Assembly: GCA_963792075.1 (NCBI GenBank)
Contig: CAWBUW010000012.1
Location: 397,854-461,853 of the forward strand
Source of the DNA: an uncultured Chloroflexia bacterium
GTDB lineage: Bacteria > Chloroflexota > Anaerolineae > Anaerolineales > UBA4823
Reading direction: 5' to 3'
Length of the DNA stretch: 64,000 nucleotides
The position numbers and the translations under genes were made by a program. Numbering within the stretch: the stretch's first letter is position 1; each line of letters begins with the position of its first letter. The notes beneath the pieces are model-generated. The model did no database searches, was not told where the DNA came from, and saw only the letters and a list, made by a program, of their open reading frames with translations. Below, one piece after another: positions 44,209-61,594 of the stretch.

Positions 44209-44211
44209 GAT

Positions 44212-45759
44212 CTACTCCTTCTTACCCAACAGCCCGTTGGGCAGCAGCAGCAGGACCACAATCATGAGTAAAACGGTGGAGGCCGGTACGATGGGCGGCG
44301 TTGGTTTGAAAATAACCTCCGTGAAGGGGATTTGGATGCCAATCGAACCGTACTTGATGATGAACTGCTGGAGGAGTCCTACCAATACGGATCCCAGCGC
44401 CGCACCAGGGTAGCTGGTCAGGCCTCCGATGGCCAGGGCGATCAGCGCATTCAAAAAGAAGCTTTCCCCCATAGAATTGGAAAGCCCTTGCGATGGCGCA
44501 GCCATCACCCCCCCCAGGGCTGCCAGCCCTACGCCGAGGGCAAAGACCATGGTGAATACCCGGCGCACATTGATCCCAAGAGCTTCGACCATCTCGCGAT
44601 CTTGAACACCCGCCCGGATGATCATGCCCAGTCGTGAACGTTTCAACAGGAGCCAGACGGCAACCAAAACGATCAAACCGAGCAAAGGTATGAAGATTTC
44701 ATTATAGATACGGATACGTCCATCCATGAACTGAACCGTGGTGCAGTTTCTTTGCAGCGCGGCAACCAGGTTTTCGGCCGGGCAGCCCTCCCCACTTCCG
44801 CCGAACAAGGCTGGTTTGGGCATGATGAACTCCGGACGCCCCCAGATGGCGCGCACCATTTCGATACCAACCGCGCTCAGCCCAAGGGTGAGCATGAGCT
44901 GGTAAATGGGGCGAACGTACAGCGGGCGGATCAGCGTTGTCTCGATTAATGCTCCCAGTCCGGCACCGCTTAAGACGGCCACCAGCATCGCCACCAGGAA
45001 CAGCCCGTTACTGCCCAGGCCGTTTAGAAAACCGGTAAAGGCATCGTTTCCCACCAGGGCAGCCACACCCAATACCACGGCAGCTCCAAACAACGCATAG
45101 CTGCGCCAGGTAAGGCGCGTGACATTTTGCGAATGGCGCCCAATGAGCGAAAGGCTGAAAGCGCCCAATGAGCTGCCCACCAAAAGACCGATAAGGGCAA
45201 GCAGGGGGGATATTTTATCAAACGCCACAACTGGACGCGGCATATCAATGCCTTGCTCGACCATTACGGAATAGGTTCCCGGGCTTTGTGCGTAATTTTC
45301 TAAGTCCCAGGCTGCAATCGGATAGCGCAGCATCACGGCAACGACGATCAACCCGGCAAGAAGAAGGCCCAGCCAGGGTAAAATGGGCTTCAATTTCCCA
45401 TCAAGTGGAATGCGCGAGCTTAAAGACACCCAAACTTCACTCAATAAAAATCCGCTCAGGATCAGCAGCAGGGGTGTCAGTAAATCTACGAAAGTATCCG
45501 GCCGTATATACACAGTCCAACCGATATAGGCGCCGATCATGAAAAGTGTGCCATGCGCCAGGTTGAGCACATCCAACAGGCCAAAGATCAGCGAAAATCC
45601 AGATGCTACCAGGAATGTGATGGATCCCACCGCCAGACCGCGCAATAAAGTAATAAAGAAATCCTGAGTAGGCATACCCTGCGCAGCGACTGCAAACAAC
45701 CCGAACAGCACACCCAAAATAATCACGCGGAACAGGTTTTTTCGGAAGTAGACTTTCAT
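44212..45759 (-). CDS. Liv-type ABC transporter permease (LivH-like) with ~200-aa internal insertion
   Basis: 515 aa. LivH-like N-terminus (LNLAHGTLFMIGAY) and C-terminal two thirds, separated by an extra hydrophobic segment. Confidence 0.8.
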   Translation of the reverse strand: MKVYFRKNLFRVIILGVLFGLFAVAAQGMPTQDFFITLLRGLAVGSITFLVASGFSLIFGLLDVLNLAHGTLFMIGAYIGWTVYIRPDTFVDLLTPLLLILSGFLLSEVWVSLSSRIPLDGKLKPILPWLGLLLAGLIVVAVMLRYPIAAWDLENYAQSPGTYSVMVEQGIDMPRPVVAFDKISPLLALIGLLVGSSLGAFSLSLIGRHSQNVTRLTWRSYALFGAAVVLGVAALVGNDAFTGFLNGLGSNGLFLVAMLVAVLSGAGLGALIETTLIRPLYVRPIYQLMLTLGLSAVGIEMVRAIWGRPEFIMPKPALFGGSGEGCPAENLVAALQRNCTTVQFMDGRIRIYNEIFIPLLGLIVLVAVWLLLKRSRLGMIIRAGVQDREMVEALGINVRRVFTMVFALGVGLAALGGVMAAPSQGLSNSMGESFFLNALIALAIGGLTSYPGAALGSVLVGLLQQFIIKYGSIGIQIPFTEVIFKPTPPIVPASTVLLMIVVLLLLPNGLLGKKE

Positions 45760-45767
45760 GGTTTTCC

Positions 45768-46484
45768 TCAGGCCGCACCCAGGTAGCGGTGAATGGTGGC
45801 TTTATCATTGACAAGGTCCCGCATATTCCCGGATTGCACCGAACAGCCTTCTTCAATGATGGTGTAATACTCGGCGAGCTGGCTTGCCACCAGGAAGTTC
45901 TGCTCCACCAATACCACAGTTGACTCGACGGATAACTGGCGGATAGCTGCCATAAGCTGCTCAATGAGGACGGGCGCCAGCCCTTCGCTGGGTTCATCAA
46001 TCAGCAGCAGGTGGTTGTCCGCCACGAGCGCGCGAGCAATTGCCAGCATCTGCTGCTGGCCGCCTGAAAGATTGGCACCAGATAGTCTAATCAAGCGTTC
46101 CAGATCAGGGAATAGAGAATAAATAAATTCTTTTTTACGGTCGTAATCGCCCTTTTTTCGCTCCGCAATCTTGAGGTTCTCTTCTACGGTCAGATCGCGG
46201 AAAATGGCGCGATTTTCAGGAACAAAGCCGATACCCATCGTCGCAATGTCAAATGAACGCAGGCCCTGGATTGGGTGACCTTCAAACATGACCTTACCTG
46301 TACGCGGTGGCGTGAGGCCAAGGATTGACTTCAATGTGGTCGTTTTGCCTGCCCCATTGCGACCAAGCAGTGCGGTAACGCTTCCCTTAGGCACGTTCAG
46401 GCTTACCCCCTGTAGAATATGGTACTGCCCAATAAAAGTATGGACGTCCTGAAGCTCGAGGATATTTTCCACAACTGCGCTCAT
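45768..46484 (-). CDS. Liv-type ABC transporter ATP-binding protein (LivF-like)
   Basis: Walker [10 protein letters not shown], signature LSGGQQQ, Walker B LLIDEPS. Confidence 0.9.
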
Positions 46485-47257
46485 AAGTTTAACTCATACA
46501 AACCGCCCAGGTAAGCGGTTTGAACTTCCTTGTTGGCCGCAATTTCTGCGGGCGTCCCCTCCGCCAAAACGCCGCCCTGGTGCATCACCGTGATGACATC
46601 CGACACTCGCATGACAACATTCATATTATGTTCGACCAGCATCACGGTTTTATTGCCGGTCTTTTGGATTTCCTGGATCAAGGCGATCAACTCCGGCACC
46701 TGTTCTGAGGCCATGCCTGCCGTGGGTTCATCGAGCAGCAGTACCTCTGGATCGGGCGCCAGGATCATGCTCAGCTCCAGCTTGCGCTGGTCGCCATGCG
46801 GCAGCGTGCGCGCCAGGGTCAGGGCACGCCCTTCCAGGCCCACTTTCTGCAGCACTTCCCAGGCACGCTGCTCATAATGCTTGAAAGCGCCTGCCGGGCT
46901 GAAACACTTGAAATTATCGGGTCCCAAGGATTGGCAGGCCAGGCGGACATTTTCTAACACGGTAAGATTGGGAAAGATATTGGTAATTTGGAAGGAACGC
47001 CCCATACCCATGTGGATCGTGCGGTATACGGGCTGGTGGGTTATATCCTTGCCCTTGAAGAGTACCTTCCCACTTGTCGGCTCAAGGTTGCCACTAAGCA
47101 GGTTGAAGTACGTGGTTTTCCCCGCTCCATTGGGACCGATGATGGAGTGCAGCGAACCAGCCCTCACCCGGAGGCTGACATCCGCTACAGCGACCAGAGC
47201 ACCGAATTCCTTGCGCAGGCTTACGGTTTCCAGAATGGTCTCAGCATCCATGCTCAT
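46481..47257 (-). CDS. Liv-type ABC transporter ATP-binding protein (LivG-like)
   Basis: Walker A GPNGAGKTT, Walker B LLLDEPT. The ATG at 47257 is preferred because the longer ORF runs into a hairpin. 4-nt overlap with the LivF-like gene. Confidence 0.9.
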   Translation of the reverse strand: MSMDAETILETVSLRKEFGALVAVADVSLRVRAGSLHSIIGPNGAGKTTYFNLLSGNLEPTSGKVLFKGKDITHQPVYRTIHMGMGRSFQITNIFPNLTVLENVRLACQSLGPDNFKCFSPAGAFKHYEQRAWEVLQKVGLEGRALTLARTLPHGDQRKLELSMILAPDPEVLLLDEPTAGMASEQVPELIALIQEIQKTGNKTVMLVEHNMNVVMRVSDVITVMHQGGVLAEGTPAEIAANKEVQTAYLGGLYELNL

Positions 47258-47280
47258 CTTCCCAGGCAGAAAAGGTTTGC

Positions 47281-47319
47281 GTGGTGAACGCCCCAACCGC
47301 GATGGGAGGCGTTCACCAC
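47281..47319 (-). other. Intercistronic hairpin after the SBP gene of the second Liv-type transporter
   Basis: A 12-14-bp stem GTGGTGAACGCC / GGCGTTCACCAC, between the SBP stop (47336) and the ATPase start (47257). Confidence 0.55.
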
Positions 47320-47335: not shown

Positions 47336-48770
47336 TTATTTGCCAGACAGGTTCCCGTAAGGCAGGCTACCGCAGCGAGCCTTCAAAGCCTCGGGGAGCA
47401 GGCAGGGCGGTTCAGGTCGAGTAGTATTGACGTATTCGTAGAAGTTAGCGCCGGGGTCGGTAACGTTGAGCAGCTTCAGGATATACATATCCTGGATCGC
47501 CACGTGGTCTTCGGGGCGGATGTAGATCGTGCCTTTGGGGCCTTCGAAGGTCATACCTTCCATCACCTTAATCAGTGCATCACTGCTGGTATCGCCCTTG
47601 GTAAGCTTCAGGGCTTCTACCAGCATGATGGCGGCGTTCATGCCATCGGCATCGAACAGGTCGGGGTTAACGCCATAGCGCGGTTTGGTGTTGGCAACCA
47701 GGAAGTCGTTGATCGGGTTCTTGGGAGCACTGTAGTGGTAGAGGATACCACTGGTGCTGCCAATAGCGCCGCCATACCAGAGCGGCATGAGGACGTTATC
47801 GATGAAAGTTGCGCCCAGCGCCATTTTTTCGGTCACCCCCTGGTCCTTAGCGGCCTGCATCAGCGGGACGAAGCCACCACCTGCCCAGGTGACGATGTAG
47901 GACTTCGGCGCCGGAGTTCAGGATTTGTTCCATGTACGGAGTGAAATCCGCGGTGTCGAGCGGGGCAAAGATATCATCCGCAACAAAAGTACCACCATCC
48001 AGAGTACAGGCATCCCGGAAAGCAGCCGCTGAACCACGCCCAAAAGCGTAGTCGGGGGCAATCTGGACGAAGGTTTTGTACTGCTTGGTCAGATACGCAC
48101 ATTCGTTCATCGCGTCCTGGTAGTTGTTGCGGCTGGTGCGGAAGGTGTACTCGTTGAAGTTGGCGCCGGTGATGTCATTGGCGGCCGCGGGGGCTACGAT
48201 CAACGGGATTTTGCTTTCCAGAGCGATCCCCTGCAAGGTCGCAGTAGCGGCTGAGGAAGCCGTGCCGACCAGGAAGTTGACCTTCTGCACATCAATCAGC
48301 TCGCGGGCAACGGTAGCGGTGTTCGCAGGATCGCCAGCATCATCGCGCACGAATACCTGGATCTCGCAGTTTTCCACCTTGAAGGTGTTTTCCTGGGCAG
48401 TCTTGAGGTCGAAGACTTCGCCGGCCGAGCCGGGAGCGCCAGCAACATATTCCATGCCCAACATGAACGAGCGCAGGATATGTGCGCCGTAAATCGCCAG
48501 GGCGCCGGTGGCGTCCGTGATCAAACCGACTTTGACCGGCTCAGCGCAGGTCAAGCCGGCAGGCGGCGCTTCAGTAGGCGCTGCGGTCGGCTCTGCGGTC
48601 GGCGCTTCGGTGGGTACGGCGGTCGGTTCAGGCGCTTTGGTAGGCTCAACAACTGGGGCTGTCGTGGGCGCGGCAGTCGGTTCTGATACAGAGGTGGCTG
48701 CCGGCGCGCAAGCCGACAATACCAGCGCCAGGATGATCACGACATAAATTAGGGATCGGTACAGTTTCAT
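47336..48770 (-). pseudogene. Lipoprotein LivK-like solute-binding protein interrupted by a single frameshift (or an assembly indel)
   Basis: The N-terminal ORF (47847-48770) has a lipobox LVLSAC and a Pro/Thr/Ala/Glu linker. The C-terminal part (47336-47860) reads KSYIVTWAGGGFVPLMQAAKDQG in a frame open up to 47917. Together they make about 470 aa, the same size as the other SBP. Confidence 0.7.
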
Positions 48771-48945: not shown

Positions 48946-49761
48946 TCATAACATAAAGTCGGACACCACCTGGGCGGCGGTCTCCGGTACTTCAACGGGA
49001 AAGAAATGGCCTGCGTTTGGCAGCAGCTTGACCTGGCTGTGTGGGATTTGCTTCGCCAGCAAATCCGCGTTGCCAGATGGAACCACCTTATCATGCTCAC
49101 CAAAAAGGATCAGCGTGGGCATGGCCAGGTTGGGCAATTTATGCTCAAAACAAGCCGCCTCCGCCAACAGCCCCAGGCCGATCGCCATCTGCGCCTGGTA
49201 AGGGACAGGCTCGACCGGGTTCTGCAGGCGGAACTGCACCCAGGCCTGGATAATCTCCGGATTGGCTTCGGCGAAGCCCGGAGCGCAGCTCACCGCGAGG
49301 CCGTTTGTGAAACGGGTCAGCGGGTCGCTGGTGACGTCGGAGAGCACCGCCATCGCTTCTGGCGTAATCGGAATGTGGTGTGGGCCGCCAAAATTTGTTG
49401 CAGAAAGGATCAGCTTTTCAACACTCTCTGTATGGCTGAGAGCCATTGCCTGGGCAATGAAGCCGCCCATCGAGTGGCCCATGATCACCGCTTTCTCTAC
49501 CCCCAACGCCTGCAGCAGGCCGGCCGTATCATCCGCCAGCATCTGCGCAGTATAAGGACCGGCCGGTTTGTCAGTCTGGCCCACGCCGCGGTTGTCAAAG
49601 ACAATGACCGGCACGCGCTGCGCCAACAGCGGGACCATCCGGTACCACATCCACAACGGGTAGCCCAACCCGGCAATCAGCACCAGCGGCTTAGCGGAAG
49701 TAAGCTGCGAGCCATGCACTTCATAATAAATGTCAATTCCATTCGCGTGTACTTTCGACAT
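48946..49761 (-). CDS. Alpha/beta-hydrolase
   Basis: 271 aa. Nucleophile elbow GHSMGG, HG oxyanion region, C-terminal His (NAGHFFP). Confidence 0.8.
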   Translation of the reverse strand: MSKVHANGIDIYYEVHGSQLTSAKPLVLIAGLGYPLWMWYRMVPLLAQRVPVIVFDNRGVGQTDKPAGPYTAQMLADDTAGLLQALGVEKAVIMGHSMGGFIAQAMALSHTESVEKLILSATNFGGPHHIPITPEAMAVLSDVTSDPLTRFTNGLAVSCAPGFAEANPEIIQAWVQFRLQNPVEPVPYQAQMAIGLGLLAEAACFEHKLPNLAMPTLILFGEHDKVVPSGNADLLAKQIPHSQVKLLPNAGHFFPVEVPETAAQVVSDFML

Positions 49762-49763
49762 GA

Positions 49764-51344
49764 TTACTCCCTGGTAGTTTTCTCCACCACCCCAGTATTC
49801 TCGACTGCGAACGCCTTGCGCAACTCTGCCTTGATCACCTTGCCATAGGGTGAATAGGGCAAGGCCGGCACGAACTCGATCCGCTTAGGGATTTTGAAGC
49901 GCGCCAGCCGGCTGGCGCAAAACGCCAGCAGCTCTCTTGCTTCAGTTTTCTGGTCCGGCTTGAGTGCGACTATCATCAAACCGACCTCCCCCCATTTAGG
50001 GTCCGGTTGGCCAATCAGCGCCGCATCTTCCACGGCAGGGTGCTCGCGAAAGACCGCCTCCACCTCGGCGGCATAAACGTTCTCGCCGCCGCTGATGATC
50101 ATATCCTTGTAGCGCCCGGAGATGTAATAAAAGCCATCTTCGTCCTGCCGCGCCATATCGCCGGTATAGAACCAGCCTTCCTTCAGCGCTTGAGCCGTTG
50201 CGGTGGGATTGCGCCAGTATCCGGAGCATACGTGCGGCCCGGCGATGATCAGTTCCCCAGTTTGCCCGACCGGCACATCTTTCCCTTGCGCATCCACCAG
50301 GCGCATCTGGCTGTGGAAGATGGGCTTGCCGACGGAGCCCGCTTTGGGCTCCGATTCCTCATCGGTCATGCTGAAACAGTTGGTGCCCACTTCGGTCAGG
50401 CCATAGCCCTGGCGGAACACCACGCCTTTGGCAGCGCGCCAAGCCTTCATCAGAGAAATCGGGCAGGGTGCGCCGCCGCTGACGAAAAAGCGCACATGGC
50501 TGAAATCCGCCTCGGCAAAATAGGGCGTATTCTGCCACATCTGGAACAGCGTAGGGACGCCCAAAACCACGCTGCACTTTTCTACGACGATCATACGCAG
50601 CGAGGTCTCGGGATCGAAGTTGCGCGCCAGGACGATCCGCCCGCCCGCGTAGAACAGGGGGACCAGGAAGATGAACAGGCCGCCAGCATGGAACATAGGG
50701 GTCAGGATGGGCGCGATATCACGCTCAGACAATCCCCAAGAAATGACCGTGTTGATGGCGTTCCACAGCACCTGGCGATTCGGGATGACTGCGCCCTTGG
50801 GCTTCCCGGTCGTGCCCGAGGTGTAGAGGATGCAGTACGGATCCTCGCCATCCAGCGATGGGCGTTCAGGCTCTACAGGCGAGGCCTGCGCCAGGAGCGC
50901 TTCATAGCTGGCTGCGCCGGGGATGAGAGCGCCTTCCAAAGCCAGATAAGCTTCTACCGAAGTACTGCTACCCCCATCCTGGACCGCCCGGATCTCCGCC
51001 AGCGCGCCCACAAACTCCGGGCCGCAAAGCAGGACTTTAGGCTGGGCATCGTTGATGATGTAGCTCAGCTCACGGCTGGTCAGCCGCCAATTGAGCGGGG
51101 TAAAGATGGCGCCGATTTTGCCTAACCCAAAAAGCAAATCCAGGTACGCCAATCCGTTGTGCGCCAGGATTGCCACTCGGTCGCCCTTCGTCACGCCAAA
51201 GCGCTTGCGCATCAAATTAGCGCAGCGGTTGGCGCGTGTGTTGAGTTCGGCGTAAGAATAGCGTCCGCCGTCGTGCACGTCAACCAACGCCAGGCGTGCA
51301 GGCGTCAGCAGGGCGCGTTTGCTGAGCAGGTCCGCCGCATGCAT
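49764..51344 (-). CDS. AMP-dependent acyl-CoA synthetase/ligase
   Basis: 526 aa. Canonical AMP-binding P-loop YTSGTTGKPKG and the GYGLTE and TGD motifs. Confidence 0.85.
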   Translation of the reverse strand: MHAADLLSKRALLTPARLALVDVHDGGRYSYAELNTRANRCANLMRKRFGVTKGDRVAILAHNGLAYLDLLFGLGKIGAIFTPLNWRLTSRELSYIINDAQPKVLLCGPEFVGALAEIRAVQDGGSSTSVEAYLALEGALIPGAASYEALLAQASPVEPERPSLDGEDPYCILYTSGTTGKPKGAVIPNRQVLWNAINTVISWGLSERDIAPILTPMFHAGGLFIFLVPLFYAGGRIVLARNFDPETSLRMIVVEKCSVVLGVPTLFQMWQNTPYFAEADFSHVRFFVSGGAPCPISLMKAWRAAKGVVFRQGYGLTEVGTNCFSMTDEESEPKAGSVGKPIFHSQMRLVDAQGKDVPVGQTGELIIAGPHVCSGYWRNPTATAQALKEGWFYTGDMARQDEDGFYYISGRYKDMIISGGENVYAAEVEAVFREHPAVEDAALIGQPDPKWGEVGLMIVALKPDQKTEARELLAFCASRLARFKIPKRIEFVPALPYSPYGKVIKAELRKAFAVENTGVVEKTTRE

Positions 51345-51349: not shown

Positions 51350-52114
51350 CTAAGTCCCCACCACGATACCGCCGTCTACGCGCAGTGTTTCGCCAGTGAT
51401 GAAGGAAGCTTCGTCCGAGGCAAGGAACACGTATGCATTGGCAATGTCGCGCGGTTCGCCCATGCGGCCCAACGGCGTGTGGCCCTTCATGCCCTCCAGG
51501 ATTTTCTCCGGCATGGCCGCGACCATCTCAGTGGCCGTAAAACCTGGAGCTACGGCGCAGACACGGACACCATAACGCCCTAATTCACGCGCCCAGACCT
51601 TGGTCATGCCGATCACACCCGCCTTGGTGGCGACATAGTTGGTCTGGCCGAAATTGCCATCCAGGCCGACCACCGAAGTGGCGTTCAGCACCACCCCGCC
51701 ATGCTGGCGGATCATCACAGGGGCCACGGCCTGCGTGCAGTTAAATACCCCTTTCAGGTTGACTGCAATCACCAGGTCGAAATCTGCCTCAGCCATCTGG
51801 CCCACCAACTGGCCTTCTTTGAACTTGACCAGCAAGCCGTCGCGCAGGATACCGGCGTTGTTGACCAGCACATCAATCCGTCCGTACTGGGCCGCCACAT
51901 CATCGATCCAGGCCTGCACGGCCTGGCGGCTGGTGACGTCCACTTTATAGAAGCGCGCCTCGGCGCCCAACAGGCGCACCGTCTCCTGCCCAACCGCTTC
52001 GTTGACGTCGCAAATGACGACTTTAGCGCCTTCTTCAGCGAAGCGCAGGGCAGTGGCTTTACCGATCCCGGCTGCGCCGCCGGTAACCAGAACAACTTTA
52101 TCTTTGAATCGCAT
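51350..52114 (-). CDS. Classical SDR (FabG-like 3-oxoacyl reductase)
   Basis: 254 aa. TGGAAGIGKA, NNAG, YVATK (YxxxK). GGAGGA RBS. Confidence 0.85.
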   Translation of the reverse strand: MRFKDKVVLVTGGAAGIGKATALRFAEEGAKVVICDVNEAVGQETVRLLGAEARFYKVDVTSRQAVQAWIDDVAAQYGRIDVLVNNAGILRDGLLVKFKEGQLVGQMAEADFDLVIAVNLKGVFNCTQAVAPVMIRQHGGVVLNATSVVGLDGNFGQTNYVATKAGVIGMTKVWARELGRYGVRVCAVAPGFTATEMVAAMPEKILEGMKGHTPLGRMGEPRDIANAYVFLASDEASFITGETLRVDGGIVVGT

Positions 52115-52311: not shown

Positions 52312-52737
52312 TTAAAATACACGAAATGCCAGGTAGGTATGGCTCTTCTCGCCGGCAGTATGTTCGATAAAATCGACCACCAGCGGTGCGCCGATCTGGA
52401 TCGCATCCGGATAGGCCGGGTCCAAGCCAAGAATATGCGCGCTGATACGCGGGCCTTCTTCCAGCTCCACGATCCCACTGACATACGGCTTCTCGCGCCC
52501 ATAGCCTTGCTCAATCATAAACGTTGGGGCGATATAGATCACCGTAAAGGCCGCCAGCTTGCCCTTGCCTGAGGTCTCGACCCATTCCATCCGGTCGCTG
52601 CGGCAGTGCGGGCAAATCGCCCGCGGGGGTAGTGCCAGCTTACCGCAGGCAGCACAACGTGCCGCCATAAGTTTCTTCTCCGCCAGGAATTGATCGAAAG
52701 CAGCCGCACTAAATGGTCGCGCCAGGGTTTCTGTCAT
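52312..52737 (-). CDS. DUF35 Zn-ribbon/OB-fold protein (thiolase partner)
   Basis: 141 aa. Zn ribbon CAACGKLALPPRAICPHCRS followed by an OB-fold region. AGGAGG RBS. Immediately downstream of the thiolase-like gene. Confidence 0.8.
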   Translation of the reverse strand: MTETLARPFSAAAFDQFLAEKKLMAARCAACGKLALPPRAICPHCRSDRMEWVETSGKGKLAAFTVIYIAPTFMIEQGYGREKPYVSGIVELEEGPRISAHILGLDPAYPDAIQIGAPLVVDFIEHTAGEKSHTYLAFRVF

Positions 52738-52746: not shown

Positions 52747-54012
52747 CTAATTGCGCCGCTCATAAATATGTACTACACAGGTGGAACCGGTCGCGCCCAC
52801 GTTGTGTGTCAGCGCCAGCGGGATATCTCCTGCTACCTGGCGCGCCTGCGCCTCGCCGCGCATCTGCTTCCAGACTTCCACAGCCTGCGCTACGCCTGAA
52901 GCGCCCACCGGGTGGCCCTTAGACTTCAACCCGCCGGAGGTGTTGATTGGACGAGCGCCGTCGCGAGCGGTGACTCCATCTTCGGCGGCTTTATAGCCAT
53001 CTCCCGGTGCAAAGAAACCCAGGTCTTCGCCGGCGATAACTTCCGCAATCGTGAAGCAGTCATGCACTTCAGCGATACGGATATCGCTGGCGCTCACCCC
53101 TGCCATTGCATAAGCGACCTGCGCTGCCCGGCGCGCGGCGGGGATGCTGGTCAGCTCTTCCCGGTCGTGCAGCGGAACGCCAGAAGCCTGGCCCGAGCCG
53201 ATGATGTAGATCGGGTGGTCGCTGAACTCATGCGCTCGCTCGGCAGACACCAGCAGGACCGTTGCCGCGCCATCCGTGATCGGCGAGCAGTCGAACAAGC
53301 GCAGGGGCCAGGCAACCATGGGGTTGGCCGAGTTGTCGTGCAGGAAATCCCAGACTGTTTGCCAGGTTGGCGCCGGCTTGCCCTTTTTGATCGCGGCGGA
53401 AATGCGCCCCTGCATCCAATCGGGAAGCGAGACGCCAAACTGGGCCAGGGGATTGAGCGCCCCGTTGGCATGGTTCTTGATCGCCACGTGCATCAGATGT
53501 TCCGGCTTCATCCCATAACGGTGCATGTAAGCCGTCGCCATGGCTGCGTACAAACCGGGGAAGGTAAATCCCGCGGCGATTTCGAAGGGGATATCCGCCG
53601 CGGTTGCCAGCGTATCGGTCACTTCGGCAGTGGGCAGGTTGGTCATTTTCTCCACGCCACCCGCCAGCACCACGTCTTGCATCCCTGATGCAACCGCCAT
53701 CACTCCCTGGCGCAGCGCCACACCGCCGCTGGCGCAGGCGTCTTCCAGCCGGGTGGCGGGAATGGGCGCCAGGCCGACCGCATCGGCCATCAGCGGAGCA
53801 ATGTGCCCCTGGCGCTCGAACTGGTCACTGGAAAAATTGCCCAGGTACAGGCTTTCGATCTGTGTAGGATCCAGGCCTTTATCTACCGATTTGGAAAGAG
53901 CCTGGTATGCCTCGACAAAAAGGTCGCGGCTGTTCTTTTCGGGGAAAGCGCCGAAACGGGACATACCCGCACCGACCAGGGCGACCCCGCGTGGGAGACG
54001 AGTCGATTTCAT
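52747..54012 (-). CDS. Thiolase-like protein (SCP-x / non-specific lipid-transfer-type thiolase)
   Basis: 421 aa. Nucleophile region LEDACASGG and C-terminal GGLKSKGHPVGASG. Paired with DUF35, as in known thiolase-DUF35 systems. Confidence 0.85.
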   Translation of the reverse strand: MKSTRLPRGVALVGAGMSRFGAFPEKNSRDLFVEAYQALSKSVDKGLDPTQIESLYLGNFSSDQFERQGHIAPLMADAVGLAPIPATRLEDACASGGVALRQGVMAVASGMQDVVLAGGVEKMTNLPTAEVTDTLATAADIPFEIAAGFTFPGLYAAMATAYMHRYGMKPEHLMHVAIKNHANGALNPLAQFGVSLPDWMQGRISAAIKKGKPAPTWQTVWDFLHDNSANPMVAWPLRLFDCSPITDGAATVLLVSAERAHEFSDHPIYIIGSGQASGVPLHDREELTSIPAARRAAQVAYAMAGVSASDIRIAEVHDCFTIAEVIAGEDLGFFAPGDGYKAAEDGVTARDGARPINTSGGLKSKGHPVGASGVAQAVEVWKQMRGEAQARQVAGDIPLALTHNVGATGSTCVVHIYERRN

Positions 54013-54020: not shown

Positions 54021-55085
54021 TTACCCTTTCAGGAAGGTTGTAAAGGCTTCCAAGAATTCAGCAGGCTTTTCCACATAAGGGGTGTGGCCGGTGTCGGTAA
54101 TCACCACCTCGTGGAACGACCCGCCCCGCGCTGCGTACTGCTCCAACACGTTACGCGTCTGGCCGACCATCGGCTGAGGTGGATAAACCTCATCCCCTGG
54201 CCAACCTGGGACGAAGCCAAGCTTGCCCAGGGTGCCCAGGTCAAAGAACGAGTTGTCCGAGACGATCTGATCCGAATCACCACGCACCCACAGCACCCGC
54301 GGCTTAGGCGTGGCAGCGATAAAACGCTTCACAGAATCGCCCACATACTTGGGCGTCGCGGCGTTGATCCCGCCCCATTTACCCGGTGCCACGTTCGGCC
54401 AGTTAGCAGAGGGCACAAAATCGCCGGGGTATTTCTCTGGGCCAATCTTCTCGGTCAGCAGCGAAGAGAGCAGGTCTTCTTCGCGAGCCGGTTTGAAAGG
54501 CGGTTTCCAGTAGAAGCTGTTCATTACGACGCGCGGGCTGGCGGTCGGGCTATCCATGCTGCGGTCGCCCTGAGCCATGCGCTGCGGGAATTCAGGGTTC
54601 ACCACCCCACCGCCAGAACCAGCAAAGTCAGGATAACAGGGCGTGCCGTTAATATCTTTGCTGCCACCAAAACCGTAGGGCGAGCCAGGGTTGACCAGCG
54701 TGGCGGAGAGAATACGAGCGCTGTTGGCCGCGATCAAATTAAAAACCAAGGCGCCGCCCAAGGAATGACCAACTGCGTGGAACTTCGCTGCGCCCAACGC
54801 ATCCGCCAGCGCGAAGGCATCGTCCACCCAGTCACCCAGGCCACGCGTGGCATCGATCAACAAGTCTTCAGTATCGCCATAACCACGCAGGTCAGGCGCT
54901 ACGGCGCGAAAACCTGCCGGGAGATGGAGCATGATCTCCTCCCAAAACGTCGCGGAGGAAGCGTTGCCGTGGAAAAAGAACACGGGCACACCGTTTTCTG
55001 GACCGCAGAACAGGGCATGCACTTTGAGGCGGGTCGTTTGTACAATCCTGGAGGTAATCCCAGGCAGAGTCGGGACAGTAGACAT
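54021..55085 (-). CDS. Alpha/beta-hydrolase
   Basis: 354 aa. FFFHGNASS oxyanion region, nucleophile elbow GHSLGG, C-terminal His (DTGHTPY). Confidence 0.75.
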   Translation of the reverse strand: MSTVPTLPGITSRIVQTTRLKVHALFCGPENGVPVFFFHGNASSATFWEEIMLHLPAGFRAVAPDLRGYGDTEDLLIDATRGLGDWVDDAFALADALGAAKFHAVGHSLGGALVFNLIAANSARILSATLVNPGSPYGFGGSKDINGTPCYPDFAGSGGGVVNPEFPQRMAQGDRSMDSPTASPRVVMNSFYWKPPFKPAREEDLLSSLLTEKIGPEKYPGDFVPSANWPNVAPGKWGGINAATPKYVGDSVKRFIAATPKPRVLWVRGDSDQIVSDNSFFDLGTLGKLGFVPGWPGDEVYPPQPMVGQTRNVLEQYAARGGSFHEVVITDTGHTPYVEKPAEFLEAFTTFLKG

Positions 55086-55161: not shown

Positions 55162-56706
55162 TTACCTGACAAACCGCTCGCGCAGCTCACGTTTGAGGAT
55201 CTTACCCGCCGCAGAAATGGGCAGGCTGTCCACGAAGATGACACTACGCGGAACCTTATATTTTGCCAGGCGAGCGCCCATAAATTCGAGCAGCTCGGCT
55301 TCGCTGGCGCTGGAACCTGGCTTGAGCACCACGCAAGCCTTGCCCACCTCCCCCCAACGGGGCTCAGGTACGCCAAACACAGCGCACATGTGAACGGCTG
55401 GGTGCTGGTAAAGTGCCTTTTCGATCTCCGCCGGATACACATTTTCACCACCGCTGATAAACATATCTTTCTTGCGATCAACGATGTAGAAATACCCTTC
55501 CGCATCATAGCGCGCCACGTCGCCGGTATGGAAGAAGCCCAATGAGTCCAAAACCGCGGCGCTGGTTTCCGGGTCAGCAAAATAGCCAGAGCAGTAAGAA
55601 GGACCCTTGAGCACCAACTCTCCATCCTGGTCCGGCCCCAGGAATTGCCCCTGGTCATCTACGATCCGGGCATCCACGTAAAAATTAGGGCGGCCAATCG
55701 AGCCTGCCTTGCGGATGGCATCTTCCGGCGCCAGGGCAAAAATACCCGGCCCAAACTCCGTCATTCCAAAGCCCTGTTTGAAACGGATGTGTTTTTCACG
55801 CGTATACTGCTCCACCAACGTCACCGGCAGCGGAGCGCCTCCCGAGGTGCAAAAACGCAATGAGGAGAGGTCTGCCTGCGACCAGTTCGACGCCTGGGTC
55901 AGCATCTGGTACATCGTGGGCACACCGGCGAAGACCGTGACGTGCTCGCGCTCAATCAGGTTGAGTACCTGCGCCGGATCAAACTGGCGGATCAAGATTG
56001 TAGCGCCGCCAAAGATCACCTGCGGCAGCGTGTAAACAAACAGGCCGCCCGTATGGAACATGGGGAAAACGTTCAAATAAATATCGTTGTGCGTGACGTC
56101 ATGGATCACCGTATTGAGCGTGTTCCAGGCGATCATACGATGGGAAACCTGGGCGGCTTTGGAGAGACCCGTGGTCCCACCCGTGAAAATCAACGCGGCG
56201 ATATCCTCGGCTTCCAATGATTCGCAAGTTACAGGGGTATCCGCCTGCGCTTGCAGCAGGGTCTCAAAGTGCTGGCTCCCGGCGATGCCTTCCCCTTCGA
56301 TATGGAAAAACCTGACAGGGAGAGCCGGACCCTCACGGAGCGCTTCGGCTAGCTGGCGCACGCTCTCTCGGAAATCATCCGAATACACCAGCACCTTCGG
56401 CGTCGTCTGGCGGAAAATCTCAACCAATTCTTGCCAGTGCAGGCGCCAATTCAACGCGGTGTGGATGGCGCCGAGCTTGGAGCAGGCAAAGAACGCGTCC
56501 AGGTGTTCTACCCCATCTCGCGCCAGGATCGCCACCCGGTCGCCCTTTGACACCCCCAGCAAGCGGAAGCCATTTGCCAGGCGGTTGGCGCGCCGGTTCA
56601 TCTCCTGGTAAGTCAGCCGCCATTCAGGGGATTTGCCTGCATCCACAATCGCCAGTGCCTGGGGTGAGTAAAGTTCTCTACGCGCCAGATAATCTCCGAT
56701 ATACAT
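55162..56706 (-). CDS. AMP-dependent synthetase/ligase with variant P-loop
   Basis: 514 aa. The AMP-binding P-loop variant FTGGTTGLSKA differs from the canonical TSGTTGxPKG. GFGMTE and TGD motifs are present. Confidence 0.85.
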   Translation of the reverse strand: MYIGDYLARRELYSPQALAIVDAGKSPEWRLTYQEMNRRANRLANGFRLLGVSKGDRVAILARDGVEHLDAFFACSKLGAIHTALNWRLHWQELVEIFRQTTPKVLVYSDDFRESVRQLAEALREGPALPVRFFHIEGEGIAGSQHFETLLQAQADTPVTCESLEAEDIAALIFTGGTTGLSKAAQVSHRMIAWNTLNTVIHDVTHNDIYLNVFPMFHTGGLFVYTLPQVIFGGATILIRQFDPAQVLNLIEREHVTVFAGVPTMYQMLTQASNWSQADLSSLRFCTSGGAPLPVTLVEQYTREKHIRFKQGFGMTEFGPGIFALAPEDAIRKAGSIGRPNFYVDARIVDDQGQFLGPDQDGELVLKGPSYCSGYFADPETSAAVLDSLGFFHTGDVARYDAEGYFYIVDRKKDMFISGGENVYPAEIEKALYQHPAVHMCAVFGVPEPRWGEVGKACVVLKPGSSASEAELLEFMGARLAKYKVPRSVIFVDSLPISAAGKILKRELRERFVR

Positions 56707-56742: not shown

Positions 56743-57747
56743 TTAAGCGGAAGCCGTCCATTTCCAGACTGAGGAGGCCATGCTGATCCCACCGCCGCTG
56801 GCGCAGAAGAGCACGATCTGGCCGGGTTTGGGGCCGCGACCCTGCGCAATGGCATCATCCAACGCCATTACCACACAGGGTGAGCCGGTGTACCCCCATT
56901 TATCCATCACCCAGTGCGTTTTGGTGATGGGCTGCCCTACCAGGTCCATCATCATTTCGATCGTACGCAGGTTGAGCTGAGTGAAGAGAAACAAGTCCAC
57001 GTCGCGGAAGGTCAGGCCGGCTTTATCCAGCGCACCTTGCATCAACCTGGGCCAATATTCCGTATTAAAGGTCTTGGGGAATTTCTTAACAAACTGCACC
57101 TTCGGCGGGCCAAATTCCTCCAGGTTAGCCGGCGTACAAGGACGGTAAGTACCGCCGGTATAGATGCCCAGCGCGTCATGGAACTCACCCACTGCCAGCA
57201 AGTTACTTGCCAGGAAGCCCGGCGTATCCCCCACGCCCAGAACGGCCGCGCCAGCGCCATCTGCGAACAGGTTGGCGGTCTTTTTATCGGTCAGGTCTAA
57301 ATAACGGCTCATCCCGTACCCACCCGCCACCAACACATATTTCATGGATGGCTCGGTCAGCAAATTGCGCGCGCCCTGGTCCAGGGCAGTCACCCAGCCG
57401 GCGCAGGCGCTGTTGATGTCAAAACAGCCAGCCCGGCCGGCCCCCAGCTTATGTTGTACCACGACCGAGGTACTGGGAGAGAGGTAGTCCGGCGTATCCG
57501 TCGAGACGATGATCAGGTCCAGATCCTGTGCGGTCAGCCCAGCGCGCTGCAAAGCGCGTTGCGATGCCAGGGTGATCAAGTCCGAGGTCGCTTGTTCGGG
57601 CGCCATCCAGCGCCGTTCCCGGATGCCCACATTCTCTTCCAGCCAGGCTGAGGTAGATTCTCCCAGCATTGCATCTATTTCGGCGTTGGTGACCACTCGT
57701 TCGGGTACATAACTTCCCGTCGCAAGCAACTGCACGTTACGGTTCAT
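56743..57747 (-). CDS. KAS III (FabH)-like thiolase-fold protein that retains Cys but lacks the His and Asn of the catalytic triad
   Basis: 334 aa from the ATG at 57747 (GGAGAAG RBS). Cys context NSACAGW. By-eye alignment to E. coli FabH: PHQANLRI becomes FTQLNLRT and HGNTSAAS becomes WGYTGSPC. Confidence 0.8.
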   Translation of the reverse strand: MNRNVQLLATGSYVPERVVTNAEIDAMLGESTSAWLEENVGIRERRWMAPEQATSDLITLASQRALQRAGLTAQDLDLIIVSTDTPDYLSPSTSVVVQHKLGAGRAGCFDINSACAGWVTALDQGARNLLTEPSMKYVLVAGGYGMSRYLDLTDKKTANLFADGAGAAVLGVGDTPGFLASNLLAVGEFHDALGIYTGGTYRPCTPANLEEFGPPKVQFVKKFPKTFNTEYWPRLMQGALDKAGLTFRDVDLFLFTQLNLRTIEMMMDLVGQPITKTHWVMDKWGYTGSPCVVMALDDAIAQGRGPKPGQIVLFCASGGGISMASSVWKWTASA

Positions 57748-57824
57748 AAGAGTTTCTTCTCCAAAAGGGTATGATAACGAAAAATCACGCTGCATTGAGC
57801 CAGCCGCGCCAACTGCCGGGCCGG

Positions 57825-58142: not shown

Positions 58143-61100
58143 CTAATTGGCCAACTGGTCGTAAAGCGCCTGGGTCTCTGCGGATGGCGCCAGGTCCAGC
58201 TCCGCACGCAAGGTCTGCACGCAGCGTTGGTAGGTACGGCCCACCTGCCCGCGATCTCCCAGATGAGCATAGGCCTGCATCAGGTGGCGGTAAGCCCGTT
58301 CCCAGCAATTATCCTGCGCCAGGATGCGCTGGCCCAGCTCAACCACTTCGCTATATTGGCCGGCGTGCAGCAGCAGGTCCGAGAGCCGGTCGGCGGCCTC
58401 CAAAAACATGACGGCCATGCGCTCGCGTTCTTGGGCAGCCCACGTCTCGTAGAGCGTCTCTGGCAGGTATTCCCCTTGGTACAGCTTCAGCGCGGCGCGC
58501 AGCGTCTCCAGCCGGCGGTCATCGGGTCGTGGAGATTCCGGCCGTTCCGCCTGGCGCACCAGGCGCTCAAACTGCTCCACATCCAGCCAGATATCCGCCT
58601 CAGAGCGTAAACCATACCCTGTTCCTTCTCGCAAAATAAAAGCCGATTCAGCGCCGGGTTTCCGCTCCGGTTCCAGCACCTGGTAGAGCGTATTCAGCGT
58701 AATCTTGAAATTACGTTGGACTGTGCTGGCGTCAGCCCCCGGCCAGAGGTGCTCGCAAATCTGATCACGTTCCAGGGGAGTATGGCGAAAGGTAAGCAGC
58801 AGTTGAAAAAGGTGACGGGCTTTCTCCCTCCGCCAACCGGAGGCGGGGACGAGATCGTCGCCACGCCAGACCTGAAAGCTGCCCAGGGTGCTGACGCGAA
58901 GCTGGTAACCTGGATGCAGGGACACGTCTGTAAGCCCCATAACGCCCAGCAGGCGGGTAACATACCCTGCCTCCCAGCCATGCTGTCGCGCCAAGGCGAG
59001 CAGCGGGACAAAGATGCGCTCATCCGGCGCGCCCAGTAGGGAAGGACGGATCCATAAGAAATCATAACCACGTTCGCGGCAGGCCGCCAACACTTCCGGC
59101 AGCACCGGTTCCAAACGCTGGTGCCGTTTTTGGCGCTGCCAGCTCAAGCACAACCACAGCCGGGCTGCATTACGCCCAAACACATCGCTGCATTCCTGGA
59201 ACCCGGTAAACGCCCGGCTCAACCAGGTTTCAGCCGCCTCATATCTGCCGGCGAGTACCAGGCTGGCGCCTAAAGCCAGGCGCACCAGCGAAGCGATCCA
59301 TTCATCCCCGGCCTGCGCCGCAATCTCGATCGCGTCCAGAGCGTACTGCTGCGCCTGGGGCAGCTCTCCTAGATAGCCATAAGCGCGGCACAGACCCCAA
59401 TTCGCCTCCACCAGCAGGCGGGGGACGCTCAAGCTGCGGCTGATTTGCACGCATTTTTCAAACTGGAGACGGGCATTGGCGTAGTTTGCGAAGCGTTGGT
59501 CCGTAAAAGCCGCCTGCGCCATCAAGGCATGTCCCTGGCGCATATATCCCACCGCAGTGATGAACGGGGACTTAAGCTCCTCGCCGCGCTGGGTACCTTC
59601 CAACGCAGCCTGGTAAGCCAGCTCACCCTCGCCCTGAAAAGAGTAGATCAACGAGAGAAGCAGCAAGGTTTCCCGGTGGGCGCGTGGAGTCTGCACTGGC
59701 GCGCGGCGCTCAGCCGCAGCGCGTGCCTCCAAGGCCTGGCGCGCCTCGCCGATCCGTCCGGTGCGCAGCAGCACGCGAAAAAGCAGTTGCTCGTTCGAGG
59801 GGCCTTCACTGCGCAAATCATCCGCTTTTTGGCGCAAGCGCTCGGCCTCTTCCACCCGGCCGGCATTCAGCTTGTTCTCGGCCAGCAGTTCGTACAGGCG
59901 CACCTGCGCCTCGCGGTCTTCAAACCCATCGCTGAGAAAAACGGATTGTTGTAACAGCTCCTCCGCCTTGCTCGGATTGACCGTATCCAGGTAGACGCGC
60001 GCCTGGCCACGCAGGGCACGCGCTACGCCACCTGATTGGCCATGCGATCGCCAGACCGCTTCGGCCTGCTGGTACCAACCCAACGCTTCCTGAAAACGGG
60101 AGTACAGGCGGGCAAGGTCACCCATGTAAAACAACAGCAGGGGTTGTGCAGACAGCGTTTCAGGCGGCAGGGCATCCAACTGAGATGCCAGCGCTTCCAA
60201 ACGCCCAGAGGCTAAGAGTTGGCCGCCGAATTCAGCCAACTGTGCTGCGACATCCGACCAGGCCTCTGCCCACCTGTAGTGATAAATCGCATTTTCATGA
60301 TCCTGGCGGGTGAGGAAATAGACGGCCGCGCTGGCGTGCCAGGCCTGGCGCTGCTCTTTGGACGCCTGCTGCCGTAAAAACTCATGGAATATATGATGAT
60401 AACGCAGGATGCCCTCGCTGGTCTCCACCACGAACAAATCCTGCCGGCGCAAATACGCCAGCATCGCCGTGCTGTCGCGCACCTCGCTGCCGGTCCCCAC
60501 AGGCTTCCTCTCCGGATCGATACGTAGGGACTGCAAAGAGCAGCTACGCACGGCGTCGCACGCTTCCGGGATTAACTCACGCAGCGTGGCTGTGATCAGC
60601 AAGAACTCGCGAATATCCGCCGACTGCTGTGCAAAAACATCACGTGCCAGCACCTCGAACAAGGCATCCAGCGAGTCCATTTGCAAATATGCGGAGAAAT
60701 TGAGCGCTGTCGCCGAACGGCTGCGCAGGTTCTGCCAGGTTAGCTGAAGCGCAATCGCCCAACCCTCGGTATAGTCCAACAGCACGTCCACTTCATCCGA
60801 GGTAAGCTCATAACCGTACTGCTGTGCGAACAAAGCTGCGGTTTCTGGACCGGTAAATGTAAGGGCAGTCTGGTCAAGCAGGAGGACATCGCCCTGCAAG
60901 CGCCAGCGGGCCAGGTTCGGCAGTTGGATCGGCGGACGGCCGGCCAACAACACGTGCAGCGCTGCGGGCGCCAGCCCAATCAAGCGATCCATGATTTGAG
61001 CCACCTCACCCGATTCCAAAACCAGGTGGATATCGTCCATCACCAAAAGTGTGGGCGCGGTCAGGCCTTCACTCAAAGCATTTAAGTATCCATCCAGCAA

Positions 61101-61448
61101 GCTGCGCCAGGGCAGCGGCCCTTGTGAGCCATCCCAGGATTCGAGAAATGCAGTGGGCAGTCCATCCAGGCCGGGAAGCGATAATTGGGTGGCATGGCAC
61201 AGGTACAGCAGGAATACGAGTGGGTCGCTGTCTTCCTGAGTAACCTGATACCAGATCAAAGGCTGCATCTCCGTGGTCAGTTCGGCTAATGCGGTGCTCT
61301 TCCCATATCCTGCGCCAGCCTGCAGCAGTGTCAGGCGATAGTGCTGCGCGTCAGCCAGGCGCTGGCTGACGCGTGGGCGCGACAAAGTGCGCGGCGCGCG
61401 GCGCGGGGGAATGATTTTTGTACGCAGGATCTTCGGAAAGATGGGCAT
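58143..61448 (-). CDS. STAND-type ATPase (MalT-N-like) + TPR region + C-terminal SARP module (OmpR-type wHTH + BTAD) transcriptional regulator
   Basis: 1101 aa. MalT-like N-terminus (KIIPPRRAPRTLSRPRV...LLQAGAGYGKST, Walker A), a long helical-repeat middle, and a C-terminal LGSFQVWRGDDLVP...EKARHLFQLLL...LWPG plus a BTAD-like helical domain. Confidence 0.85.
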   Translation of the reverse strand: MPIFPKILRTKIIPPRRAPRTLSRPRVSQRLADAQHYRLTLLQAGAGYGKSTALAELTTEMQPLIWYQVTQEDSDPLVFLLYLCHATQLSLPGLDGLPTAFLESWDGSQGPLPWRSLLDGYLNALSEGLTAPTLLVMDDIHLVLESGEVAQIMDRLIGLAPAALHVLLAGRPPIQLPNLARWRLQGDVLLLDQTALTFTGPETAALFAQQYGYELTSDEVDVLLDYTEGWAIALQLTWQNLRSRSATALNFSAYLQMDSLDALFEVLARDVFAQQSADIREFLLITATLRELIPEACDAVRSCSLQSLRIDPERKPVGTGSEVRDSTAMLAYLRRQDLFVVETSEGILRYHHIFHEFLRQQASKEQRQAWHASAAVYFLTRQDHENAIYHYRWAEAWSDVAAQLAEFGGQLLASGRLEALASQLDALPPETLSAQPLLLFYMGDLARLYSRFQEALGWYQQAEAVWRSHGQSGGVARALRGQARVYLDTVNPSKAEELLQQSVFLSDGFEDREAQVRLYELLAENKLNAGRVEEAERLRQKADDLRSEGPSNEQLLFRVLLRTGRIGEARQALEARAAAERRAPVQTPRAHRETLLLLSLIYSFQGEGELAYQAALEGTQRGEELKSPFITAVGYMRQGHALMAQAAFTDQRFANYANARLQFEKCVQISRSLSVPRLLVEANWGLCRAYGYLGELPQAQQYALDAIEIAAQAGDEWIASLVRLALGASLVLAGRYEAAETWLSRAFTGFQECSDVFGRNAARLWLCLSWQRQKRHQRLEPVLPEVLAACRERGYDFLWIRPSLLGAPDERIFVPLLALARQHGWEAGYVTRLLGVMGLTDVSLHPGYQLRVSTLGSFQVWRGDDLVPASGWRREKARHLFQLLLTFRHTPLERDQICEHLWPGADASTVQRNFKITLNTLYQVLEPERKPGAESAFILREGTGYGLRSEADIWLDVEQFERLVRQAERPESPRPDDRRLETLRAALKLYQGEYLPETLYETWAAQERERMAVMFLEAADRLSDLLLHAGQYSEVVELGQRILAQDNCWERAYRHLMQAYAHLGDRGQVGRTYQRCVQTLRAELDLAPSAETQALYDQLAN

Positions 61449-61543: not shown

Positions 61544-61594
61544 GGTTTTGGGGTTGTTTTGGGCGGCGAAGCCGCCCAAAACAACCCCAAAACC
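61544..61594. other. 24-bp perfect hairpin in a divergent promoter region
   Basis: GGTTTTGGGGTTGTTTTGGGCGGC-GAA-GCCGCCCAAAACAACCCCAAAACC. Located between the regulator start (61448, minus) and the dehydrogenase start (61635, plus). Confidence 0.7.

Follow-up and report, generated by a model that had tools for sequence, protein, structure and literature searches.

What reaction is carried out by a FabH-like protein that keeps the nucleophilic cysteine of its family but has threonine and tyrosine in place of the catalytic histidine and asparagine? The question is raised by a gene for a ketoacyl-acyl carrier protein (ACP) synthase III (KAS III)-like protein in a 64,000-nucleotide stretch of DNA, here called the window, from an uncultured Chloroflexia bacterium of the Anaerolineales (contig CAWBUW010000012.1, positions 397,854 to 461,853). 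A preliminary description of the locus had reported the two replacements and concluded that the protein is not a standard decarboxylating condensing enzyme. The comparisons presented here point to a real, conserved and uncharacterized catalytic variant of the KAS III fold, with the residue set Asp84, Cys115, Thr256 and Tyr286 (D-C-T-Y). Beyond what had been described, the change was found to be clade-wide, Asp84 was found to occupy the position of the catalytic glutamate of 3-hydroxy-3-methylglutaryl-CoA (HMG-CoA) synthase (HMGS), and archaeal members of the clade were found in an importer-centered gene cluster.

Active-site residues of the KAS III-like protein

The open reading frame (ORF) spans 56743..57795 on the minus strand (350 aa). 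Translation probably begins at an internal ATG, at 57747, as the resulting gene (56743..57747, minus strand) encodes 334 aa, in keeping with homologue lengths of 331–337 aa, and a GGAG Shine–Dalgarno sequence lies about 10 nt upstream. The 334-aa protein contains the Pfam domains ACP_syn_III and ACP_syn_III_C, and its best PDB matches are FabH structures (phmmer, 1e-44 to 1e-42; about 30–33% identity). An AlphaFold2 model built with the clade alignment as input (pLDDT 93.9, pTM 0.93) matched FabH, BioZ and ZhuH structures in Foldseek at TM scores of about 0.9 and 28–33% identity. The overall fold is confidently predicted to be that of an ordinary FabH.

In the phmmer alignment, the query segment 'dinsaCagw' falls on the FabH Cys motif, 'lflfTqlnlrtie' lies opposite FabH 'lfvpHqanlriid', and 'dkwgYtgspc' lies opposite 'dryGNTstas'. 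An independent MAFFT alignment with E. coli FabH gave the same equivalences: Cys115 (codon TGC, 57403..57405, minus strand, as for the other three codons) with the nucleophile Cys112, Thr256 (ACT, 56980..56982) with His244, and Tyr286 (TAC, 56890..56892) with Asn274. Both methods bear out the retained Cys and the two replacements reported in the preliminary description, and the four sequence strings quoted there are all present in the translation. The fourth residue of the set, Asp84 (GAT, 57496..57498), aligns with FabH Thr81.

The query scored below the curated cut-offs of all NCBIfam FabH models (NF006829, 229.3 versus 249; TIGR00747, 199.4 versus 292.1). The NCBIfam HMGS models matched only the N-terminal half of the protein, residues ~21–198, with 23–45 bits against cut-offs of 244–360 (1e-5 to 1e-12).

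Conservation of the D-C-T-Y set

Homologues were collected from about 15 billion proteins clustered at 50% identity, with a single representative searched for each cluster, and the full-length matches were aligned with E. coli FabH. Of these representatives, 96 were C-H-N and 19 were C-T-Y in all three triad columns; adding the C-N-Y and S-P-Y variants to the latter gives 21 that bear the tyrosine. The 21 include the nearest relatives of the query as well as four divergent sequences that score among the C-H-N proteins. In a neighbor-joining tree all 21 form one clade with zero C-H-N members inside it. The Cys-Thr-Tyr pattern is best read as the signature of a monophyletic clade rather than as decay.

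A second set of 226 sequences, combining close matches, 80 genomic loci and distant cluster members at 31–100% identity, showed Cys115 in 226/226, Thr256 in 224/226 (with Asn in the other two) and Tyr286 in 226/226. As judged from these counts, set against the presence of both His and Asn in 96/96 of the C-H-N representatives, the pattern lies far beyond chance. The glycine loop is also kept across the 226 sequences. Taken together, the alignments show strong purifying selection on the fold, the Cys, the glycine loop and Asp84 in a clade that has lost His and Asn.

Could a His and an Asn from elsewhere in the sequence take the vacant places in the active site, as the preliminary description had asked? 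No alignment column of the clade reaches 60% His, and the sole clade-specific conserved Asn is Asn228, at the position of FabH Ala216. A compensating pair was rejected on these grounds. Because the His/Asn pair is missing and no conserved substitute His is found, it is very unlikely that the protein works as a decarboxylating KAS III of the standard kind, and to this extent the earlier conclusion holds.

To define residues specific to the clade, its 21 representatives were compared with the 96 of the C-H-N type, and positions conserved in at least 85% of the clade but rare outside it were retained. Eight positions were obtained: Asp84, Gly194, Pro224, Asn228, Trp232, Thr256, Tyr286 and Cys291. 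Pro224, Asn228 and Trp232 correspond to FabH Val212, Ala216 and Leu220, along one face of a helix. Several residues of the FabH CoA site are retained in the 226-sequence alignment (Trp35 in 208/226, Phe161 in 223/226, Asn259 in 217/226), with Arg151 changed to Lys, and the position of FabH Phe87 is Ser in 218/226. Basic surface residues of FabH are lost or reversed in charge in the same alignment (R36 to N, K214 to E/Q, K256 to D/E, K257 to L); R249 is present in 189/226 and variable in the distant members. R36, K214, R249 and K256/K257 form what we take to be the ACP-docking patch of E. coli FabH. ACP is not known from archaea of the Thermofilum type, in which members of the clade occur (see below), and it is probably not used by the D-C-T-Y enzyme.

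Asp84 and the catalytic glutamate of HMG-CoA synthase

Asp84 is present in 20/21 clade representatives; FabH relatives carry S, V, T, G or I at this position. The clade was aligned profile to profile (hhalign) with S. aureus HMGS, using a sequence identical to that of PDB 1xpk. The clade strand 'IIVSTDTPD' was placed without gaps on 'VIVATESAVD', which puts Asp84 on the catalytic Glu79 and Cys115 on Cys111. On the basis of this alignment, Asp84 is assigned to the HMGS Glu position. HMGS has an E-C-H-N tetrad, of which the Glu, Cys and His are needed for catalysis (PMC11522927, PMC12960953). At the same four positions the clade reads D-C-T-Y and FabH reads T-C-H-N.

The likeness does not extend securely to the tyrosine. 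hhalign brings Tyr286 onto HMGS Tyr277 only through a five-residue gap, whereas the ungapped FabH-based alignment places it at Asn274. The query 'YTGS' resembles 'NIYTGS' of HMGS, and the hhalign placement of the His region appears unreliable.

Distribution

When a single genome from each GTDB species was scanned for the pattern, at least 600 stretches matched and 599 of them were confirmed by tblastn, which places the clade in 599 or more species genomes from several bacterial phyla. Hosts include Anaerolineae and other Chloroflexota, Chloroflexus, Competibacteraceae, Acidobacteriota, Ignavibacteria and Myxococcota, the last with the cultured Archangium gephyra and Pyxidicoccus fallax. More distant members, at 39–42% identity, occur in Caldisericia, Saprospiraceae, Bipolaricaulota and Spirochaetia and, in the same identity range, in the crenarchaea Thermofilum adornatum, T. 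pendens and Infirmifilum. In the source databases these proteins are annotated as 'ketoacyl-ACP synthase III'.

For thousands of metagenomic proteins, and for the species genomes counted above (599 or more), this annotation is probably incorrect, and it would lead astray metabolic reconstructions of the Chloroflexi that abound in wastewater and sediment. Cultured hosts are at hand in A. gephyra, P. fallax and T. adornatum.

Gene cluster in the window

The KAS III-like gene is the first of a compact operon, all on the minus strand. It is followed by an acyl-CoA ligase of the AMP-binding family in Pfam (ACL1, 55162..56706), whose best PDB matches, of the feruloyl-CoA synthetase/fatty-acyl-CoA synthase kind, are the feruloyl-CoA synthetase 8wev and 8weu (1e-118), with FadD13 next. 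Then come a 354-aa α/β-hydrolase with the Ser motif GHSLGG (ABH1, 54021..55085), for which the top PDB matches are haloalkane dehalogenases, and a thiolase of the SCP2/archaeal-ACAT type (52747..54012). The thiolase scores 452.9 against the cut-off of 420 for NF004720 and is nearest to the acetoacetyl-CoA thiolase of the archaeal thiolase/HMGS/DUF35 complex (6esq, 3e-84). Its CxS, HDxF and GHx motifs, as defined elsewhere (PMC12960953), are intact as CAS93, HDCF317 and GHP366. A DUF35 protein with zinc ribbon and OB fold, assigned by Pfam, is encoded at 52312..52737.

The operon continues with a classical short-chain dehydrogenase/reductase (SDR) of 254 aa (51350..52114), of the FabG/(3R)-hydroxyacyl-CoA dehydrogenase type, which matches 4nbw at 2e-92 and the (3R)-hydroxyacyl-CoA dehydrogenase 2et6 at 5e-64. 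A second acyl-CoA ligase (ACL2, 49764..51344) was recognized by domain and family models, and a small esterase-like α/β-hydrolase (ABH2, 48946..49761) matches the carboxylesterase Est1 (6eb3, 4.5e-39). Downstream lie the genes of a Liv-type ATP-binding cassette (ABC) importer: the substrate-binding protein (47336..48770), then two ABC ATPases and two BPD_transp_2 permeases (43147..47296). The nearest PDB entries to the binding protein are the Liv-family 'possible substrate binding proteins' 3nnd and 3n0x (~1e-25); Leu/Ile/Val-binding homologues match it much more weakly (~1e-10). Its gene is broken by a one-base frameshift near 47,900 into overlapping ORFs (48770-47847 and 47860-47336, minus strand). 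In the sole homologous locus compared (L006) the two halves are in one frame, and the split gene is either a pseudogene or an assembly error.

Upstream of the KAS III-like gene, a 1101-aa regulator of the STAND/AAA-TPR-BTAD type (58143..61448, minus strand) is present in 16/20 close loci. A regulator of the same type also occurs in the distant cluster of locus L088, and the one in the window probably controls the operon. Genes for polyketide synthases, nonribosomal peptide synthetases or ACP were absent from the context, as was a second KAS gene from the window.

Three further features of the window lie outside the operon. Right after the importer, 39249-43128 (minus strand) encodes a LacI-family regulator, a glycoside hydrolase family 1 (GH1) β-glucosidase and a GH4 glycosidase, which look like a separate sugar-utilization unit. 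Both here (61548-62570, plus strand) and in T. adornatum (L082, 12796-13758), the surroundings of the cluster include a gene for a D-2-hydroxyacid dehydrogenase; its nearness may be coincidence, or it may be a peripheral member of the pathway. The G+C content is 0.46–0.52 over the first 16 kb and 0.55–0.63 thereafter, a shift that could mark an island, a change in the class of genes or a join made in assembly.

Neighborhood across genomes

The neighbors found in the window were searched by tblastn against 80 loci, of which 46 had full flanks and 20 were close relatives. The most constant neighbor is ACL1, directly downstream in 57/73 loci. The SDR is present in 26/46 full-flank loci and in 20/20 close relatives. 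The preliminary description had proposed that the neighboring thiolase might supply the condensation or cleavage chemistry; the pair is indeed present here, yet thiolase and DUF35 proved optional, being found in 14/46 full-flank loci and 11/20 close relatives, and the steady partner is the ligase.

Distant lineages show related arrangements. The Thermofilum cluster (L082) holds a thiolase, SDR, AMP-ligase, two α/β-hydrolases, ABC ATPases, permeases, the clade member and a binding protein. In Caldisericia (L084) the genes are two hydrolases, the clade member, SDR, importer, TetR regulator, CoA-transferase and thiolase. A metagenome-assembled genome (L088) has SDR, importer, hydrolase, clade member, a second KAS III-like gene, CoA-transferase, BTAD regulator and hydrolase; CoA-transferase thus recurs in lineages other than that of the window. 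In Bipolaricaulota (L090) TetR, thiolase and DUF35 genes are grouped with the clade member (here C-N-Y), SDRs, hydrolases, enoyl-CoA hydratase and importer. The SDR is accordingly found in all four of these clusters. In L090, and likewise in Acidobacteriota (L049), thiolase–DUF35 is directly beside the clade gene, as in HMGS operons. The Spirochaetia locus (L089) has an AMP-ligase and the clade member, with acyl-CoA dehydrogenase and electron transfer flavoprotein genes alongside. In Archangium (L058) a TetR regulator, ligase, hydrolase and class-2 lipase are found; two ORFs between ACL1 and the hydrolase have no Pfam match and may not be real genes.

The recurring module consists of an importer, esterases, CoA activation, a 3-hydroxy/3-oxoacyl-CoA dehydrogenase, often a thiolase, and the D-C-T-Y enzyme. 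It looks catabolic, CoA-based and independent of fab genes, and its conservation flags an uncharacterized uptake and catabolic pathway.

Some loci depart from this arrangement. Standalone copies at 62–66% identity occur in gammaproteobacteria (Competibacter, Contendobacter and related genomes; L037, L039, L040, L042, L043, L051, L055 and L057), and that of L042 adjoins an MmeI-type restriction-modification gene. A second KAS III-like gene was seen in two lineages, adjacent to the clade member in L088 (11013-12026, plus strand) and about 3 kb upstream of it in L045 (~5704-6717, plus strand). It belongs to NCBIfam NF005308 (PRK06840; 487 bits), aligns as Cys-His-His with Asp/Glu at the HMGS Glu position, and may be a heterodimer partner or another KAS III variant. 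Locus L091 encodes, 5 kb from the clade member, an 893-aa fusion of α/β-hydrolase and AMP-binding domains (16355-19036, minus strand) of OleBC-like architecture, and also has Esterase_PHB and Lipase_2 genes.

Proposed function and alternatives

We tentatively favor, at somewhat short of an even chance, a reading in which the D-C-T-Y protein would be an active, non-decarboxylating enzyme of the thiolase superfamily that acts on acyl-CoA through an acyl-Cys, by carbanion chemistry without loss of CO2. The favored reaction is a Claisen or aldol C–C bond formation of the HMGS, OleA or thiolase kind, or its reverse, on a 3-oxo- or 3-hydroxyacyl thioester. Carbanion chemistry is preferred because the Asp84 carboxylate lies at the position of the HMGS base, because an SDR of the 3-hydroxyacyl-CoA dehydrogenase type is a steady metabolic partner, and because in some phyla the gene has thiolase–DUF35 next to it, an arrangement shared with HMGS operons.

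In the proposed mechanism, acyl-CoA formed by ACL1, the ligase transcribed together with the clade gene, or elsewhere by a CoA-transferase, would enter the FabH-like CoA tunnel and, as the retained FabH features suggest, acylate Cys115. The Gly-rich loop S317-G-G-G would hold the thioester oxyanion. The His/Asn pair for malonyl decarboxylation is missing from the alignment, and Asp84 is predicted to act as general base or acid on the acyl-enzyme, aided by the hydroxyls of Tyr286 and Thr256. The enzyme would be one step of a module that imports an organic acid or ester, de-esterifies it, activates it with CoA, interconverts 3-hydroxy- and 3-oxoacyl-CoA, and thiolyses the product. As substrates, 3-hydroxyalkanoate or polyhydroxyalkanoate oligomers, hydroxycinnamates and lipids are no more than guesses drawn from weak family similarities.

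Several points weigh against this proposal. HMGS and OleA both keep the His, and we know of no precedent in the KAS III fold for enolate stabilization by a Thr/Tyr pair. It is by homology that Asp84, Tyr286 and Thr256 are placed near Cys115. No characterized member of the clade was found. Canonical thiolases share several of the clusters, in which a second C–C enzyme is not obviously needed, and the Competibacter copies have none of the usual neighbors. Finally, the esterase-rich context appears to fit O-acyl chemistry equally well.

A bolder form of the proposal, which we regard as possible but doubtful, is that D-C-T-Y represents a new catalytic class: derived from FabH, converging on HMGS and thiolase, with an Asp base and Tyr/Thr in place of His/Asn, and carrying out acyl-Cys chemistry free of ACP and CO2. 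The chemistry could be the making or breaking of C–C bonds or an ester–thioester exchange that conserves bond energy. Such a class would mark a horizontally shared pathway for the assimilation of organic acids or esters, common to anaerobes (Anaerolineae, Caldisericia, Bipolaricaulota, Spirochaetia), myxobacteria and Crenarchaeota. No KAS III with a Thr/Tyr pair or a D-C-T-Y set was found among the solved structures, curated family models and literature searched. An enzyme of this kind would be a possible new C–C or acyl-transfer catalyst for engineering.

Among the alternatives, a Cys-dependent acyltransferase survives best, although we consider it rather unlikely. The acyl group would pass between CoA and a hydroxyl acceptor by C–O/C–S transfer, with Asp84 or Tyr286 activating or protonating the alcohol; exchange between the oxo-ester of a hydroxy acid and a CoA thioester, such as the CoA-thiolysis of oligo-esters, is a possible example. 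Asp and Tyr are chemically suited to handling an alcohol or alkoxide. In nearly every lineage the neighborhood includes two or three α/β-hydrolases of esterase type, Lipase_2 or Esterase_PHB genes lie nearby in two, and a CoA-activating enzyme is close to the gene. CerJ, DpsC and ChlB6 are KAS III-like acyltransferases with altered triads, but the characterized ones keep the His and sit in natural-product clusters with ACPs or sugars rather than importers. The query has no such His, and its nearest listed match of this type is ChlB3 (7eqi, 6e-13). The acceptor cannot be identified from the clusters, and both the SDR pairing and the HMGS-like position of Asp84 point instead to β-keto/enolate chemistry.

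Decarboxylating condensation might have been kept, with the hydroxyls of Tyr286 and Thr256 as an alternative oxyanion hole for malonyl-CoA; the neighboring FabG-like SDR would then reduce the 3-ketoacyl-CoA, giving elongation without ACP. The FabH fold and CoA tunnel are retained, the SDR is frequently adjacent, and hydroxyl oxyanion holes are generally known from other enzyme families. Even so, we judge this improbable. All 96 C-H-N relatives hold on to both His and Asn, mutation of these residues in FabH reportedly abolishes decarboxylation, the clusters have no malonyl-CoA-forming or carboxylase genes, and their importers, esterases and thiolases look catabolic.

The preliminary description had also allowed for a non-catalytic partner. 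Such a scaffold would dock through DUF35 onto the thiolase, which would do all the chemistry, in the manner of PhlA, MucA and the HMGS-like protein of P. fluorescens. Tripartite HMGS-like/ACAT/DUF35 complexes with dead HMGS-like subunits are known (PMC6392133, PMC12960953), the window thiolase has intact motifs and is most similar to that of one HMGS complex (6esq), and the gene is contiguous with thiolase–DUF35 in L049 and L090. The fit is nonetheless poor and the role very improbable, because scaffolds of this kind have lost the Cys and invariably come with thiolase/DUF35. Here the Cys is invariant, Thr and Tyr are nearly or wholly so, Asp84 is missing from a single representative of the 21, and 32/46 full-flank loci have no thiolase/DUF35. 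The protein is moreover FabH-like (~1e-44) and not HMGS-like, with no HMGS among the best 60 PDB matches listed.

A diverged Ole pathway to olefins or β-lactones, in which the KAS-like protein would be OleA, the AMP-ligase OleC, the α/β-hydrolase OleB and the SDR OleD, has the same four protein classes together, an OleBC-like fusion near one clade member (L091) and an ABH1 whose best PDB matches are haloalkane dehalogenases, which are relatives of OleB, but it is hardly credible and was rejected on active-site, subfamily and context grounds: OleA keeps Cys-His-Asn with a Glu in trans where the query has C-T-Y, OleA structures match the query at only ~1e-11 against 1e-44 for FabH, the Ser motif of ABH1 is not the Asp nucleophile of OleB and the dehalogenases, the SDR is of the classical FabG type and not the extended OleD type, ACL1 is close to bona fide CoA ligases (1e-118), and importer, thiolase and CoA-transferase do not fit.

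Comparison with known systems

OleA resembles the D-C-T-Y protein in being KAS III-like, in carrying out a non-decarboxylative head-to-head Claisen condensation of acyl-CoAs with a carboxylate base, and in having AMP-ligase, α/β-hydrolase and SDR genes alongside. It differs in keeping His and Asn, in drawing its Glu from the other subunit, in its much weaker similarity to the query and in the subfamilies of its partners.

The thiolase-like retro-aldolases Ltp2 and Sal offer a precedent within the thiolase superfamily: Tyr, with or without Cys, replaces canonical catalytic residues for a non-thiolase C–C cleavage, and the enzymes have DUF35 partners (PMC12329534). They are SCP2-thiolase-like rather than FabH-like and belong to the degradation of steroid side chains. 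They are not known to use a covalent Cys nucleophile.

PqsBC is a KAS III-like heterodimer of FabH fold with an incomplete triad and an acyl-Cys intermediate on PqsC; its structures 6esz and 6et0 match the query at 1e-13 to 1e-14. PqsC is without the Asn and reportedly keeps the His, while PqsB is without all catalytic residues. The second KAS III-like genes of the L088 and L045 clusters offer a parallel, which the window does not share, and the quinolone biosynthesis context of PqsBC is quite different.

PhlA, MucA and the P. fluorescens HMGS-like protein are thiolase-superfamily proteins with non-canonical sites, encoded with an SCP2/ACAT-type thiolase and DUF35 (PMC6392133, PMC12960953). 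These inactive partners have no Cys (PMC6392133, PMC12960953), and in PhlA the Cys position is Gly115 and the Glu position Cys83 (PMC6392133). Orthology with PhlA was considered because KAS-like, thiolase and DUF35 genes co-occur in both, and was rejected: PhlA resembles HMGS (38.5% identity to the archaeal enzyme) and is without the Cys, whereas the query is FabH-like. More generally, the PhlA/MucA type derives from HMGS and has lost Cys and Glu; the clade derives from FabH and has kept the Cys, with its own Asp, Thr and Tyr.

HMGS, including that of the 6esq complex, shares with the clade a carboxylate at the general-base position (Asp84 for Glu79/82), an equivalent Cys and, in several genomes, a place beside an archaeal-ACAT-type thiolase and DUF35. 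The clade has Thr for His, Tyr for Asn and Asp rather than Glu, its sequence is FabH-like, and most loci have no thiolase/DUF35. It is not an HMGS, since His and Asn are missing and the sequence falls outside the family.

FabH (E. coli 1hn9, T. thermophilus 1ub7) is nearest by sequence and fold, with the Cys motif, the Gly-rich oxyanion loop and several CoA-tunnel residues in common. Set against it are His244 to Thr, Asn274 to Tyr, Thr81 to Asp, Phe87 to Ser, the altered helix face (V212P/A216N/L220W), the replacement of basic surface residues, and the occurrence of the clade in archaea and in importer clusters, not fab operons. The clade is not a decarboxylating FabH family, because it lacks the defining residues and scores below the curated cut-offs. 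In the thiolase superfamily the residue set decides the reaction (C-H-N, C-H-H, C-H-C or E-C-H-N), and D-C-T-Y would add a new entry to that series.

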